64,000 nucleotides of DNA from Dictyostelium discoideum (taxonomy: Eukaryota). The stretch lies in NCBI GenBank assembly GCA_000004695.1, contig CM000150.2, positions 3,744,001 to 3,808,000 on the forward strand, in the 5' to 3' direction. Of this stretch, positions 3,132-24,998 are shown one piece after another (positions within the stretch are counted from its first letter, which is position 1; each line of letters starts with the position of its first letter). Below the pieces are notes generated by a model that saw nothing but the letters and a program-made list of their open reading frames with translations, made no database searches and was not told where the DNA came from. The position numbers and the translations under genes are program-made.

Positions 3132-6705
<3,574 letters not shown>

Positions 6706-7414
6706 ATTAAAAAAAAAAAAAGATAATAAAAAATAAATTTCTAAAAATAAATTTCAAAAAAAAAAAAAAAAAATAATAAAAAATAAAAATAATAAAAATA
6801 AAAGATATTATAAATGTTTAAAATTTTTTTTTTTTTTATTTTTTTAATTTTTTTATTTTTTTTTTTTTTATTAATAAACAATTATTAATAATTTCCAAAT
6901 CAATTTTATTTTTTTGAAATTTTATTTGATTTCCAAATTATTAAAATCAATTATTATAATAAGAAAATTAAAATTGTTAAAAAAAAAAAAAACCCTATTA
7001 TTTTTTTTATTTTTCTTATTTTAATTTTTTTTTAAACAATTTTAATTATAATAAAAAAAAAAAAAATTAAAAAAATAATTAAATTGCACAAGGGGTAGAA
7101 TCTGAAAAAAATTAAAAATAAAAAAAAAATAAAATTAAAAATAAAAAAAATGATATTATCACTTCAATGAAAATAAGAGTAAACTAATTGTCACTAATCT
7201 CATTGTGAATTTATGGAAATAAAAAACAATATTATTTTTTATTTAATTTTTTATTTATTTTTTTATTTATTTTAATTTTTTTTTTTTTTTTTTTAATTTT
7301 TTATTTTATTTTTTTTACCATATTAATTCATTTCCTGTTTTAGTGTTTCCAATTTTTCACAAAAAAAAAAAAAAAAAAAAAAAAAAAATTAAAAATAAAT
7401 AAAATTAAAATAAA

Positions 7415-7651: not shown

Positions 7652-8725
7652 ATGGGAAGAGTAGAAGATCAAATTAAAGATAATTATAATTCACTTTCAC
7701 ATGAAGGTGAAAGATTAAATAGAGAGGCAAAGATTGAATCTGAAAAATTAAAAAATAATGCTAAATTGGATGCAAAAGATATGAAAAAAGATATTGATGA
7801 ATCTGTTCATTCATCATGGGAAACTGTTAAAGAAGGTGCCAAAACCGTTCAAGATTACATTAGTAGTGGTATTGAAAGTGTAAAACATACAATTACAACT
7901 GAACCAGCCCAAAAAGATATGGAAAACTTAAAACATAATGTTAACCATAATTTAGAGGAAGCAGAGAAAGAAGGTTCATCCGTTTTAAATAACATTTCCA
8001 ATTTCTTTAAAGGTTCAGCAGAAGAAGCCAAATCTGAAGCTGAACGTATTGGTTATGAAGCTTACAAGGATGGTGACCAATTTGTTGGTGATGTACATAA
8101 AAACTTTAAAAGAACTGCCAATGAAACCCAAAAGGATGCCAATAGACTCACCTCTGATGTTAAGAATGAATCAAATAAAATCTATAAAGATATTAAGGAT
8201 GAATCAAATAAACTCTACAATGATGTCAAGGGTGAATCAAGTAAAATCTATAATGGTGCTAAAAAAGAAGGTTCCAAATTGGCTACCGATCTCAAGAAGG
8301 ATACTCAATACGTTGCAGATGAAACCAAAAAGATGGCAGCTGATCTCAAGAATAAAGCCGCTGATACCTATCAAGACCTTTCTCATGATGCCTCAAAGAA
8401 AGCCACTCAACTCAAAAAGAAAGCTAGTGAAACCCTTGATGAATCTGCCGATGCTATTGAACATCAATTCGATATAATGAAGAAAGATTTCAGACATCTC
8501 AATCAACGTAATGGTATGATTTGGGGAAGTATTGGTTTAATTGGTGGTGCAACTGCAACATCTTACCTTTTCCCATCTGCATCTCCAATGGCTAAATTCA
8601 CTTTTATTGCTGGTCTTGCAAGTTTAGGTGGTTACTATGGTCTCCATCAACCACACAATAAGATTGTTGATAATGCTTTCCACAAAGCAAACAATAAAAA
8701 GGAAGAATTAAAAAAGAAAATATAA
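7652..8725 (+). CDS. hypothetical protein with LEA/apolipoprotein-like amphipathic 11-mer repeats and a C-terminal Gly-zipper membrane anchor
   Basis: A single 357-aa ORF. Repeated VKNESNKIYKDIKDESNKLYNDVKGESSKIYNGAKKEGSKL units. C-terminal hydrophobic GSIGLIGGATATSYLF...FIAGLASLGGYYGL. No introns needed. Confidence 0.55.
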   Translation: MGRVEDQIKDNYNSLSHEGERLNREAKIESEKLKNNAKLDAKDMKKDIDESVHSSWETVKEGAKTVQDYISSGIESVKHTITTEPAQKDMENLKHNVNHNLEEAEKEGSSVLNNISNFFKGSAEEAKSEAERIGYEAYKDGDQFVGDVHKNFKRTANETQKDANRLTSDVKNESNKIYKDIKDESNKLYNDVKGESSKIYNGAKKEGSKLATDLKKDTQYVADETKKMAADLKNKAADTYQDLSHDASKKATQLKKKASETLDESADAIEHQFDIMKKDFRHLNQRNGMIWGSIGLIGGATATSYLFPSASPMAKFTFIAGLASLGGYYGLHQPHNKIVDNAFHKANNKKEELKKKI

Positions 8726-9939: not shown

Positions 9940-10164
9940 CTATTAACAAAATAATTTTTTTTCATCAAACAATTAATGATATTAGTAGAAAATTAATATC
10001 TATCTTTTTTTAATTTATTTATTTTTATTTATTTATTTATTTTTTATCTTTATAACTAATTTCAATAATAATAAATTTATTTAAATTTTTAATATTTTTA
10101 ATTATTCAATACACTTTTTTTAAATTTTTAATAATTTTAAATTTTTAATATTTTTATTAATATC

Positions 10165-10520
10165 GATTACATTGTAGTTGGTGGCGTCCATGCTGAGTAT
10201 GCAATAAGGGTAATGCTTTCAATTCTTGGCATTGAATTTGATGAAATTAAGAACAAACATCAAATGAAAATAATTAGAACCAAATTTCAAAAAATAATGG
10301 TTCAATTAAAATAATTATTTTTTATTTTACCAATCATCCCTCAGACACACACAGGGATCCAATAGTTGATATTATTAAATTTAGATTATTGATAGAATAC
10401 TTTAATAATAATTATAATAATAATAATGATAATAATATAATAGAATTTGATCATTCACTAATGAAACATTACTTTGGAGAAGCTTAATGTCATTGGAATG
10501 ATATTTATATCACAGCATAA
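10165..10520 (+). pseudogene. fragment (copy 1) of a three-copy repeated gene-like unit; it lacks the upstream and downstream parts of copies 2 and 3
   Basis: About 90% identical to 18085..18440 (DYIVVGGVHAEYAIRVMLSILGIEFDEIKNKHQMKIIRTKFQKNNGSIKIIIFYFTNHPSDTHRDPIVDIIKF...). Begins abruptly at gattacattgtagttgg. Confidence 0.5.
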
Positions 10521-11147
10521 AAAAAAAAAAAAAATAATAAAAAATAAAAAAAATTAAATAAAATAAAAAAAAAATATAATTTTAAAATCTCTAACCTTTA
10601 CTCTTTACTTTGGGTTTTCAAAAAAATGTATATGGGTGTGAAGTTCGAATAGTTTTAATTCTTTATTTAATCAATATCTTAAATTAATTTAAGGTACATA
10701 ATTAAAATAAATTTAATAAATAATAAATAATTATTTAACTTTAATTATTTTTTTTATTTACTACTATTTTTTATTTTAATTTTATTATTATTATTCTTTT
10801 TATTTGATCGAGTCCGATGATTCAATTAATTATCTTGATTCTTCACATGTTAATCCTTTTGTTAGACTAAGATCATATACATTTGAGAAATTGCCATTTA
10901 AATAAACTTGACCACCAGTTACTATAAATTTAAAGTTTTACAATATATACCAATTGCAATATCATTACAAATACAATTACCAACGTGATCATTACATTTA
11001 TCAAATGGTGAATATTCGACTGAACAAGGAGCTCTATAATAAAATTCAATATATTAATGTTGCACCATTTCCATCTTATAATTTAATTTGTTGATTACCT
11101 TAACCTGCACCTATTGTACATATGATTTGTGGTTTATTACTTGAGTG

Positions 11148-11243
11148 ACAATCAGTGGTGGTGATGTTATAATGTCTTGTGATTTTAATATTATAAATAT
11201 TTGAAAAATCACAAGACATTATAACATCACCACCACTGATTGT
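11148..11243. repeat. perfect inverted repeat: 39-bp stem (11148-11186 / 11205-11243) with an 18-nt loop
   Basis: Arm acaatcagtggtggtgatgttataatgtcttgtgatttt and its exact reverse complement aaaatcacaagacattataacatcaccaccactgattgt, verified base by base. Confidence 0.9.
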
Positions 11244-11249
11244 TGGTAT

Positions 11250-11830
11250 TGATACTGATGATATTTGCATTTAATTGTTGATGTTGTTATGTTGATGTGT
11301 ATAATAATGTTGTTAATGTTGTTGATGTATATTTATTTTATTTGGTGAGGTTGTAGTATGTTGATGTTGTTGGCGTTGTTGATGTTGTTGATGTTGTTGA
11401 TGTTGTTGATGTTGTTGATTTTGTTGATGTTGTTGATGTTGTTGGTGTTGTGGATTTTGTTGATTTTGTTGATGTTGTTGATTTTGTTGATGTTGTTGGT
11501 GTTGTTGATGTTGTTGATGTAATATATATATTGGTTATTATTTTATTTTATTTTATTTTATTGTTGTTGATGTTGTTGATGTTGTATATATATATTGGTT
11601 ATTATTTTATTTTATTTTATTTTATTTTATTTTATTTTATTTTATTTTATTTTATTTTATTTTATTTTATTTTATTTTATTTTGGTGTTGTTGATGTTGA
11701 TGTTGTTGATGTTGTATATATATATATATTGGTTATTATTTTATTTTATTTTATATTATTTTATTTTATTTTATTTTATTTTATTTTATTTTATTTTATT
11801 TTATTTTATTATATATATTACTATTATTTT
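11250..11830. repeat. compound satellite: (GTTGAT/GTTGTT)n minisatellite (about 11250-11520, 11680-11710) interleaved with (ATTTT)n blocks (11531-11660, 11736-11812)
   Basis: Direct reading. ORFs 11450..11836 and 11595..11849 are translation artefacts of these repeats. Confidence 0.9.
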
Positions 11831-12465
11831 ATTTAATTTTTTTATTTAATTTACATTTTGTACTATATAAAATGAGTTGACATAATATTCTAAAAGAGAA
11901 TACTAATTTTGTAAAAATTTATTTATATTAATTATTGAATATCCTATTATTTATTTATATTATATTTATTATTACTATGAAGAATTGAGTAACTAATTTT
12001 GGAAGAACCTCTTGGTCATTTATCCTCACCCTCGTTATTAATAATTTTTTTTTTTATAATTTTTTTTTTTATTATTTTCTTTTTTTTTTTTTTTTTGTAA
12101 TTGACCAATTTCCGAACCCATATTGAAATAAAATATAATCAAAAAAATAAAAAAATAAAAAAAATGTGCAAAGTGATTTATTATTTTAATTTAAAAAATA
12201 AAATAAAATAAAATAAAAATAATTAAACAAAAAATAAAAATGAATAATAAAAAATATTACATACATTCTGGTTTTTATTTTTTTGCAAAGTCGCAAACAA
12301 TATTTATATTTTCTTACCAAAAGTTAAAATAAATAAATTTATTAAACTAAGATTAAATATTCTTTATTTTTTAAATACATTAAAAAAAAATAAAAAAATT
12401 GTAATGTTTTTATAGTTTTTTTTATTAATGTTTTTTTTTTATTTTTATTTTTTAAACAAAACTTG

Positions 12466-15698: not shown

Positions 15699-15751
15699 TT
15701 TTATAAGGTTGGATATAAAAATTTGAAATTTTTATATCCAACCTTATAAAA
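15699..15751. repeat. perfect 53-bp palindrome (26-bp arms around a single central g at 15725)
   Basis: tttataaggttggatataaaaattt g aaatttttatatccaaccttataaa, verified base by base. Followed by a GC-enriched segment at 15760-15890. Confidence 0.9.
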
Positions 15752-17759: not shown

Positions 17760-18760
17760 TCAACATTTTCATCTATCTTTGGTTATTTTCAAAATAATAA
17801 AAATAATAATAATAATAATAATAATAAATTAATATTAGTATACCAAATACCAAAAAGTACAAAGAATATACTTTTAGATAATAATGGTAGACAAGCATTC
17901 ACCATAAAATATTTTTTTCAATTTCTATAAATATATTGGTGATGTATATGATAGAGAAAACACAATCATAAGTCATTTATTAATTTTCATTCACAAATCA
18001 ATTTCTGGTGTTCATGAACCTATCAATGGTAACCATTTATATATTTTAATAATTGCTTTTTTATTTATAATTTAATTTTGCAGACGATTACGTTGTAGTT
18101 GGTGGCGTCCATGCCGAGTATGCAATAAGGGTAATTCTTTCAATTCTTGGCATTGAATTTGATGAAATTAAGAACAATCATCAAATGAAAATTATTAGAA
18201 CTAAATTTCAAAAAAATAATGGTTCAATTAAAATAATTATTTTTTATTTTACCAATCATCCCTCAGACACACACAGGGATCCAATAGTTGATATTATTAA
18301 ATTTATATTATTGGTAGAATACTTTAATAATAATAATTGCAATAATAATAATATTATTATAAAATTAGATCAATCACTGTTGAAATCATTTATCAAAAAT
18401 TATCAAATTTTGTTCAAAAACCAAGTAGTGGTTGTGTGATGATTTAATAAATCATATTAATTTTACTGATAATGATGAATGCAATCATAGTTTCGTATAT
18501 TCACCAATCATCAATTTTAACATTTTCGAATCAATTTTAAAACCAACAGATTCAAAAATAACAAGTATTGATGATTCAACTTCCAGTGATTACCAATTTT
18601 AAAAAATGGAATTTTTAAAATTTCATTCAATAATATTATAACTTCAATTAAAACAACTTCAAGCAAATCACCGTCAACTAAATGGAATAACAAAGCAATC
18701 AAATATCACCCAAATAATGAAACAAAGCTTGCTACCAATGCTATATCTAGCATTTGAATA
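17760..18760 (+). pseudogene. copy 2 of the repeated gene-like unit; disabled by a 1-bp insertion (ctataaatat vs tacaaatat) and a degenerate 3' part
   Basis: Shares the upstream block ...ttcaacattttcatc..., the core DDYVVVGGVHAEYAIRVILSILGIEFDEIKNNHQMKIIRTKFQKNNGSIKIIIFYF... and a decayed downstream part with copy 3 (23870-24998). The frame breaks relative to copy 3. Confidence 0.5.
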
Positions 18761-23513: not shown

Positions 23514-24998
23514 ATGTCAACCAATATAAATTTTAAAGACATGAGTTCTTATAAATATTTATCAAAACTTAAAGTTATTGATAAAGATTTTATAATTAAA
23601 TGTTTAAACATGGCGAGTAAAAAGGATGAACTTTCTTTAATTTTAGATTCAACAATAGATTTACCATTTAAGTTTAGTGATATTAGTATAACTGGTTGGA
23701 AATATAATGAAAAGATTCCATTTACATTGGATTACCAAAAATTTGACGAGTATACCATTTATCTACGTCGATTAGCCATAAATCTCCATATGCAACCAAG
23801 AATTTAATAAACAACTACTCCATTCATTAGAGAACTTATAAAAGAATCTATTTTAAACTTAAAATCAAATAAATTTTCAACATTTTCATCAGTTTTTCAA
23901 AGTTTTCATCATAATTCCAATAAAAGGATAATTTTTTTAAACCAATCAAAAAAATAAAGATTGGATGAAATTATATTACTATGGTTACGAACAATCTTCA
24001 GTTATAAAAGAAGTATTTGAATTTTACAAATATATTGGTGATGAATATGAAAGAGAAAACACAATAGTAATGGATCTTTTATTTTTTATTGGTGGAACCA
24101 ACTCTGGTATTCAAGATTCAATCAATGGTAATCACATTTACATTTTAATGATAGTTTTTTTATTCTTAATAGAATTGGCCGATTATTTTATCGTGGTTGG
24201 TGGTGCTCACGCTCAATAAGCAATTAAGTTAATATTATCAATTTTGAAAATTGAAGTTGAACAAATTCAAAACAATCATAAAATGAAATTTATAAGAATC
24301 AAATTTCAAAGCAATAATGGTTCATTTAAATCAATCATTTTTTATTTCTCCAGCTATCCATCAGATTTAAGTATAGATCCAGTCATTGATATCATTAAAT
24401 TTAGATTATTGGTAGAATACTTGATTTATCAAATAATAATAATAATCAAAATAATAATAATAATATCATTGAATTTGAAGAATCATTAATTAATTCAGTA
24501 TATCAAAGTTTATTTCAATTTGTACAAAAACCAAGTATTAGTTGCGTTAATTGTGGTGCTTATGAAAGTGTAACCAATGATTGCTGTCACAGATTCGTAT
24601 ATTCACCAATCTTTGAATTTAATATTTTCAAATCAATTTAAAAATCAACACCTACAACTACTACAACAACAACAACTGATAATTCAATTTCTAATCAATT
24701 GGATTCAACAATATTAAAAAATGGTATTTTTAAAATTTCATTCAATAACCTTGAAAAACCATCACCAAAAGAACAATTTTTAGCACAATATCCAAGATTA
24801 AAGATTTCATCAATTTTTAATACAATCAAATCTTCATTTCAATCAACAGATAATAAGCATTATTGTGGTTATTTAAAATGTAATTCAAGTTTTGATGATG
24901 TTGACAGGTTATCACTCCACATGGTGAAAGAACATCCATGTGATGAAACACCACCTGGTTCAAAATTCTTTATTATTAGAGGTGGATCAAACAATTGA
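23514..24998 (+). pseudogene. copy 3 (the most complete) of the repeated gene-like unit; its 3' part encodes a C2H2-type zinc finger (HYCGYLKCNSSFDDVDRLSLHMVKEH). It is interrupted by an in-frame TAA (tat in copy 2) and a frameshift
   Basis: ORFs 23514..23807, 23965..24219, 24244..24489 and 24699..24998 are collinear with copies 1 and 2. The stop inside ...VVGGAHAQ*AIKLILSIL... sits exactly where copy 2 has Tyr. A further frame slip and stop lie near 24425-24640. It may be a functional gene in other strains. Confidence 0.45.

Follow-up and report, generated by a model that had tools for sequence, protein, structure and literature searches.

The DNA analysed here, referred to as the window, is a stretch of 64,000 nucleotides from Dictyostelium discoideum AX4 with a G+C content of 21%. 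On the minus strand, at 10830..11270, it carries the gene model DDB_G0270976 (112 aa; annotated on the 4.92-Mb AX4 record), which could be reconstructed exactly from three exons (11270..11105, 11031..10951 and 10921..10830) separated by 'introns' of 73 nt (11104..11032) and 29 nt (10950..10922). Exon 1 of this model contains a perfect hairpin at 11148..11243, the subject of the present analysis.

Next to the model, TRF delineated two satellites. The first, (GTTGAT/GTTGTT)n at 11275..11520 (period 9/18, TGTTGATGT), reads (CAACAT/CAACAA)n on the gene strand and is also found at a second D. discoideum locus described below (L001). The other is (ATTTT)n at 11538..11852 (period 5, consensus TTATT), which alternates with short blocks of (GTTGAT)n and of (TA)n in a higher-order repeat of approximately three units. 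Between 11520 and 11810 a unit of the form (GTTGAT)n - (TA)n - TTGGTTATT - (ATTTT)n occurs about three times, and a matching layout is seen in L001 at 4690-4950. The preliminary description of this DNA had placed the hairpin beside such satellites and beside a Cys-rich ORF fragment on the minus strand, and both arrays as well as the fragment were recovered. The (CAACAT)n tract was considered as live poly-Q/H coding sequence and rejected: stops lie upstream of the ATG when it is read from the relic ORF, and the tract replaces the coding sequence of the parent gene and is no extension of it. The window contains no tRNA genes, which are possible target sites of retroelements.

Decay of a ComC-like Surface-Protein Gene

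An exhaustive HMMER search retrieved a full-length homologue, P0004 (ACTFIZ_012314; 668 aa), from D. cf. discoideum; its DNA is hereafter called L015. The precomputed Pfam assignments of P0004 are EGF_TEN (weak), DUF7949 and ComC_SSD (weak), and Pfam searches with the raw ORF pieces of the window locus gave EGF matches below threshold and nothing more, the family being recognisable only through P0004. Residues ~65-215 of P0004 are collinear with the entire locus. The coding sequence of L015 (~85% nucleotide identity) continues unbroken across both 'introns' of DDB_G0270976, both of which are coding in P0004, and it is also coding where the (GTTGAT/GTTGTT)n satellite now occupies the former 5' part of the gene. 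In L015, the full-length ComC-like gene (35-1482) adjoins a DDE_Tnp_4 (transposase-like) gene near the contig end, which hints that the family may reside in transposon-rich, rearrangement-prone DNA.

Tested as an intact gene, DDB_G0270976 failed: relative to L015 it has three in-frame stops and frameshifts, and the 29-nt 'intron' is required to hold its reading frame. The stops correspond to AAA to TAA at 11102-11100, TCA to TAA at 11078-11076, and CAA to TAG at 10924-10922, the last of them followed by a deletion. The second stop is confined to the window copy; the first TAA and the TAG, together with a 2-nt deletion, are common to the window and L001. A 2-nt deletion is also counted among the disabling mutations specific to the window, and the annotated ATG of the model was created by a base change plus a 2-nt deletion. 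Judged by these alignments, DDB_G0270976 is a relic of a ComC-like IPT/TIG and EGF surface-protein gene and not an intact gene. It resembles the ComC-like IPT/TIG and EGF proteins in its ~85% nucleotide identity to P0004 residues ~65-215, but differs from them in that only ~460 nt of the parent gene are left; this remnant has stops and frameshifts, satellites occupy the place of the 5' part, and the 3' end is joined to a foreign acidic tail. The suggestion of the preliminary description that the hairpin lies in a decayed gene was thus borne out, with the arm at 11205-11243 representing original coding sequence from an IPT/TIG-like domain (TISGGDVIMSCDF).

The acidic tail downstream matches a separate, oppositely oriented piece of L015. 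At the 3' end of the relic (10800-10850; the ...EESR stop and beyond) the identity is 92.6% to the opposite strand of L015 at 6759-6826, downstream of the full-length gene, which makes the relic a composite of two or more sources. Compared with L001, the window copy is without 69 nt of the acidic (Glu-rich) tail.

The second relic, L001 in another assembly, corresponds to the AX4 model DDB_G0277621 (P0005; on the 8.48-Mb record), which lies at L001 5001-5521. According to blastn and tblastx against the window, the two loci have approximately 1.5 kb in common (window 10461..12009). The shared part takes in the relic itself, the satellites upstream of it and the flank on its downstream side, and the flanking genes are not included. 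L001 has additional frameshifts and a TGA of its own. Since the TAA, the TAG and the 2-nt deletion are common to both copies, the relic was dead already at the time of duplication. The annotations of identical DNA disagree with each other (DDB_G0270976 versus ACTFIT_007467, and DDB_G0277621 versus ACTFIT_004932). Both relic models evade the stops through invented introns, one of just 29 nt, and they look like annotated pseudogenes. DDB_G0270976 and DDB_G0277621 are gene-finder constructs over pseudogene relics, and their re-annotation is due.

Geometry and Fold of the Hairpin

The segments 11148-11186 (ACAATCAGTGGTGGTGATGTTATAATGTCTTGTGATTTT) and 11205-11243 are reverse complements of each other without a mismatch (39/39), and with the 18-nt loop at 11187-11204 the hairpin totals 96 nt. 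Pairing breaks off directly beyond the outer limits 11148 and 11243. Inside the loop AATATT (11187-11192) pairs with AATATT (11196-11201), and the fold predicted for either strand consists of the 39-bp stem, a 3-nt bulge, a 6-bp stem and a 3-nt loop. The RNA minimum free energy (MFE) of the 96 nt is -63.8 kcal/mol on both strands (z = -16.7 for the plus and -15.2 for the minus strand), and none of 200 shuffled sequences was equally stable. Read on the minus strand, the hairpin corresponds to 32 codons (TISGGDVIMSCDF-SNIYNI-KITRHYNITTTDC), and the ORF passes uninterrupted through the palindrome.

Among stems of at least 14 bp with loops of up to 60 nt, this is the longest perfect one in the window and the only long one not of the poly(A)/poly(T) type, with 13 G/C in the 39-nt arm; the next complex perfect stem has 26 bp. 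Perfect stems reached at most 16 bp in 30 order-2 Markov simulations, and none of the simulated stems of 14 bp or longer had five or more G/C. The arm is located outside all tandem-repeat arrays that TRF found in 10400-12400. The preliminary description fared well on the geometry: its perfect 39-bp stem with an 18-nt loop was confirmed, the simulations agree with its view that the structure is unlikely to have arisen by chance, and folding, one of the checks it had proposed, returned a stable hairpin. Its low-complexity setting, however, was imprecise, as the hairpin lies in relic coding sequence of 33% G+C between A+T-rich tracts.

Origin of the Derived Arm

The origin of the hairpin was analysed with a three-way alignment of the window, the second relic L001 and the full-length gene L015, i.e., two relic copies and one outgroup gene. 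The two arms turned out to have different histories. The original arm (11205..11243, minus strand; ACAATCAGT...GATTTT, coding for TISGGDVIMSCDF) is ancestral relic coding sequence, homologous to both L001 and L015 and differing from the latter at two bases. The loop (11187..11204, minus strand) is likewise ancestral coding sequence (SNIYNI); it consists of the mini-palindrome AATATT-ATA-AATATT followed by TGA, the 3-nt bulge, and is found unchanged in L001 and with one change in L015. The derived arm (11148..11186, minus strand), in contrast, is an exact reverse-complement copy of 11205-11243 standing in place of an ancestral block, and its minus-strand reading KITRHYNITTTDC is probably an accident.

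The replacement is sharply bounded. In the flanks of the derived arm the window is 96.1% identical to L001 and 93.2% to L015, whereas in the replaced block it is just 37-42% identical to either of them, and L001 and L015 are there 87% identical to each other. The ancestral block comprises 54 nt (AGCACAAGTATTACAATTTGAATTGGTACTTCAATTTGTAATGATATTAATTTC) and codes for STSITIxIGTSICNDINF of the IPT/TIG-like domain. In the window these 54 nt have been swapped for 42 nt: the 39-nt segment found 18 nt upstream, in exact reverse complement, and the triplet CAC. This triplet forms the return junction (11145..11147, minus strand), where the alignment gives TTC as ancestral; two to three bases there match neither the copy nor the ancestor. 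Two independent references set the polarity of the change: P0004/L015 codes for FSNIYNI-RSSITISIGTSICNSIIF-SSNK, and P0007 reads ...SSSITFSIGTSIS. The reconstructed ancestral peptide gives a weak IPT/TIG match (E = 0.038, residues 25-71, the replaced block included), and the window version of the peptide gives none. When the equivalent stretches were folded, z was -1.3 for L001, -1.7 for L015 and -15.7 for the window, so that the ancestral-type sequences were not more stable than their shuffled versions.

What L001 and L015 do have at this place is a quasi-palindrome, CTTGTG-ATTTT-TCA-AATATT-TAT-AATATT-AG-CACAAG. Taken together, the comparison argues that the hairpin is probably the footprint of a single template-switch mutation, in which a quasi-palindrome within a dead gene fragment was turned into a perfect palindrome. 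The mechanism itself is inferred from the product. A ComC-like IPT/TIG and EGF gene was first truncated and inactivated, and its relic was copied to two D. discoideum loci (DDB_G0270976 and DDB_G0277621); this relic had the weak inverted repeat CTTGTG ... AATATT-TAT-AATATT ... CACAAG. At the inverted repeat of the DDB_G0270976 copy a growing strand may then have changed template, either folding back or crossing to the opposite strand, used 39 bases of the coding sequence directly upstream as a template in reverse and returned to its original template, thereby exchanging 54 bases for 42. As both lengths are divisible by three and no new stop was introduced, a gene finder could presumably still thread an ORF through the palindrome. 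The original proposal of quasi-palindrome correction is reportedly due to Ripley.

The timing and the donor can be constrained to some extent. The source arm has the ATCAGT state of the locus together with D. discoideum-specific bases, and since L001 has a 3-nt deletion at ATCAGT, the donor was the neighbouring sequence and not the sister relic. The event is later than the duplication of the relic. The two relics diverge by 3.9%, so that approximately 1.5 differences between the arms would be expected even for an old event, and the observed zero is thus uninformative on purifying selection or age. Any placement of the switch points is tentative: a four-point model would skip the 3-nt bulge (TCA/TGA) and leave two to three junction bases (CAC) over, and a simple fold-back primed on the inner AATATT stem predicts that the bulge would be copied as TGA, which is absent.

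In template-switch mutations the strand under synthesis is extended for a short distance on itself or on the opposite strand before going back to its own template. A perfect hairpin can be formed in this way in one step, and new miRNAs can draw on such events as raw material (Monttinen et al., PNAS 2023, PMC10710096). Similarly to the hairpins reported there, the present one is a one-step complex replacement: the differences are clustered in a short block between well-aligned flanks, the block is the exact reverse complement of adjacent sequence of the locus (39/39, 18 nt away), the outgroups L001 and L015 share a non-palindromic block with an earlier imperfect inverted repeat and no comparable hairpin is found in the parent, no simple-repeat artefact is involved, and the 39-nt stem falls into the 30-55 nt class (PMC10710096). 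In contrast to the published cases, which come from primates and rodents (PMC10710096), this one resides in a dead relic, is known from sequence alone, and includes a 3-nt bulge and two to three unexplained junction bases. The hairpin fits the template-switch criteria that were tested, and it is no demonstrated member of a miRNA family, no foldback element and no part of an intact gene. As things stand it is an explained mutational scar, most likely without function.

In the literature searched, no report of a template-switch hairpin in Dictyostelium was found. The locus would be an unusually clean natural example of the process, as one can see the source and the product as well as the ancestral block and the quasi-palindrome that nucleated the event, and two independent references are available for the polarity. 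It would indicate that template switching operates in the very A+T-rich Dictyostelium genome and that a hairpin of miRNA grade is possible there in one step, which bears on the young, species-specific nature of dictyostelid miRNAs; hairpins of this kind may be raw material for later hairpin-RNA genes.

Alternatives and Surroundings

The hairpin might also be read as a nascent small-RNA locus. A relic, antisense or read-through transcript would then contain the 39-bp stem, DrnB or DrnA would dice it into 21-nt RNAs, and these could act on DDB_G0277621 or on other ComC-like genes having the arm sequence. Such a locus would be compatible with a template-switch origin, of which it would represent a later stage, but we consider it unlikely. 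The structural side is favourable. The criteria used for D. discoideum miRNAs are an MFE below -0.2 kcal/mol/nt and at least 60% pairing, with at least 10 reads per arm, a 2-nt 3' overhang, a common 5' end in at least 50% of the reads and disappearance of the small RNAs from drnB- cells as criteria for the read data (Liao 2018, PMC6161686). The hairpin, with -0.66 kcal/mol/nt and a 100% paired stem, is within both structural limits. Its -63.8 kcal/mol is near the -70.6 kcal/mol of ddi-mir-1176 (101 nt), and it shares with ddi-mir-1176 and ddi-mir-7096 (-72.2 kcal/mol) a length of about 100 nt and high pairing (PMC6161686, PMC11014262). In addition, template-switch hairpins are documented sources of new miRNAs (PMC10710096), the hairpin is within an annotated gene model, and 26 nt of the sister relic still match the arm exactly. 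On the plus strand there is also a T-rich tract with a terminal G some 340 nt upstream (10741-10806), but such tracts are ubiquitous in DNA of 79% A+T and this one means little.

We take NC_007087 to be chromosome 1. The table of Edelbroek 2024 (PMC11014262) is without entries for this record, and 10-mers of the arm are not present among the supplementary hairpins and mature sequences of Liao 2018 (PMC6161686), Meier 2016 (PMC4894637) and Edelbroek 2024 (PMC11014262), files that do list D. discoideum miRNA sequences, as a positive control confirmed. Most of the known loci lie between genes or in introns, and they are DrnB-dependent, with mapped 5p/3p reads that show 2-nt overhangs (PMC6161686), whereas the present hairpin is placed in an exon of a gene model and its arms are outside these lists. 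In the literature searched the arm sequence was not found in a Dictyostelium context, and a search on the gene ID and the arm sequences returned nothing relevant. Look-ups of the exact product retrieved no transcript-like contig for the gene model (P0001) or the exon-1 ORF, compared with nine for the neighbouring gene of 357 aa. Nor is the locus conserved: it is missing at the syntenic position in a divergent D. discoideum strain (GCA_054859385.1, L013; no relic by blastn within 10 kb of the end of synteny) and in D. cf. discoideum (L014). Rfam gave no matches in the whole window at the gathering thresholds. In E-value mode the best score was 53.2 bits against a gathering threshold of 110, with dozens of unrelated plant and animal miRNA models matching on both strands, and these sub-threshold matches are a generic effect of hairpins.

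The stronger version of this reading, in which a one-step template switch in a transcribed relic has made a newborn Dicer substrate that would already be giving 21-nt RNAs matching the sister relic or ComC-like genes, is in our opinion quite improbable. If true, no earlier case of a small-RNA gene arising through template switching would have been documented outside animals, and this one would have been caught before any mismatch had accumulated and in an organism in which almost all miRNAs are lineage-specific. Young plant MIRNA genes are said, after Allen et al. in 2004, to derive from inverted duplication of their target genes over hundreds of bases of a functional gene. Like them, the hairpin has arms from a protein-coding gene family, potential targets among paralogues with the arm sequence, and the near-perfect long stem typical of evolutionarily young loci; unlike them, it goes back to 39 nt copied inside a pseudogene, and the one near-identical target identified is itself a relic. 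The locus is a specific and cheap test case for the dicing of a perfect endogenous hairpin in Dictyostelium.

The other alternatives concern the origin of the derived arm. Double-strand-break repair or gene conversion could have inserted, non-replicatively and in inverted orientation, a short piece of this relic or of a paralogous one. The outcome would be identical to that of a template switch, and sequence alone cannot separate the two; indeed, the unexplained CAC (2-3 nt) and the skipped 3-nt bulge resemble end-joining filler and microhomology. However, the copy is only 18 nt from its source, and its site coincides exactly with the earlier quasi-palindrome (CTTGTG/CACAAG, AATATT/AATATT), as a template switch predicts. 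Furthermore, the donor has ATCAGT, and the sister relic, with its 3-nt deletion there, is ruled out as donor. An inverted repair insert is therefore very unlikely, and the template switch remains the preferred origin.

An assembly or cloning artefact, raised in the preliminary description, is more improbable still. Chimeric reads can yield false palindromes, but here the palindrome is a clean in-frame replacement with no duplicated read end, and an independent D. discoideum assembly, GCA_054883475.1 (contig JBTAPE010000039.1), has the identical 96 nt with 20-nt flanks on each side. Over 18.8 kb of collinear sequence that assembly and the window show just 3 mismatches; the two hairpin-bearing assemblies belong to the same strain lineage, to which the comparison is thus confined. 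The termini of a tiny foldback or MITE-like mobile element, also proposed earlier, would likewise give perfect, inverted and closely spaced arms, but this idea can be practically dismissed, as no further copy of the arm exists in the 64 kb with up to 8 mismatches allowed, the flanks (CTTGAGTG and TGGTATTG) contain no target-site duplication, L001 and L015 have host coding sequence collinear with the loop and one of the arms, the arm core had no match in a metagenome scan, and the sole counterpart of the arm in the second relic is a single non-inverted coding copy.

Several features of the wider window were noted in passing. The plus strand at 7652-8725 encodes an intact coiled-coil protein of 357 aa with apolipoprotein-, phasin- and Scy-like matches. 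Its homologues in D. firmibasis, D. citrinum, D. dimigraforme and D. cf. discoideum are 56-61% identical, and the gene product is encoded exactly in nine transcript-like contigs of ~1.1 kb from sequencing-run assemblies. Just past this gene, at window ~8877 and L013 ~11220, the synteny with L013 (92-97% upstream) stops. None of the genes that follow in L013 (amidohydrolase, LYR, Arf/Ras, COX6B and peptidase M1) is found in the remaining 55 kb of the window, which suggests a rearrangement or insertion breakpoint approximately 2 kb from the relic.

A segment of ~307 nt is present in three direct copies (10164-10470, 18085-18390 and 24190-24478), the first being 92% identical to the second and 77% to the third. 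An ORF with the ending ...DYFIVVGGAHAQ overlaps the third copy, so that the other two resemble fragments duplicated from that gene. The copies flank the hairpin relic, in a stretch of ~9 kb that is otherwise without an annotated gene. Finally, a second complex perfect palindrome, with 26-bp arms (TTTTATAAGGTTGGATATAAAAATTT) and one central base, is located in intergenic DNA at 15699-15751, just past a long T-run, and may represent a further product of template switching or a site for protein binding.
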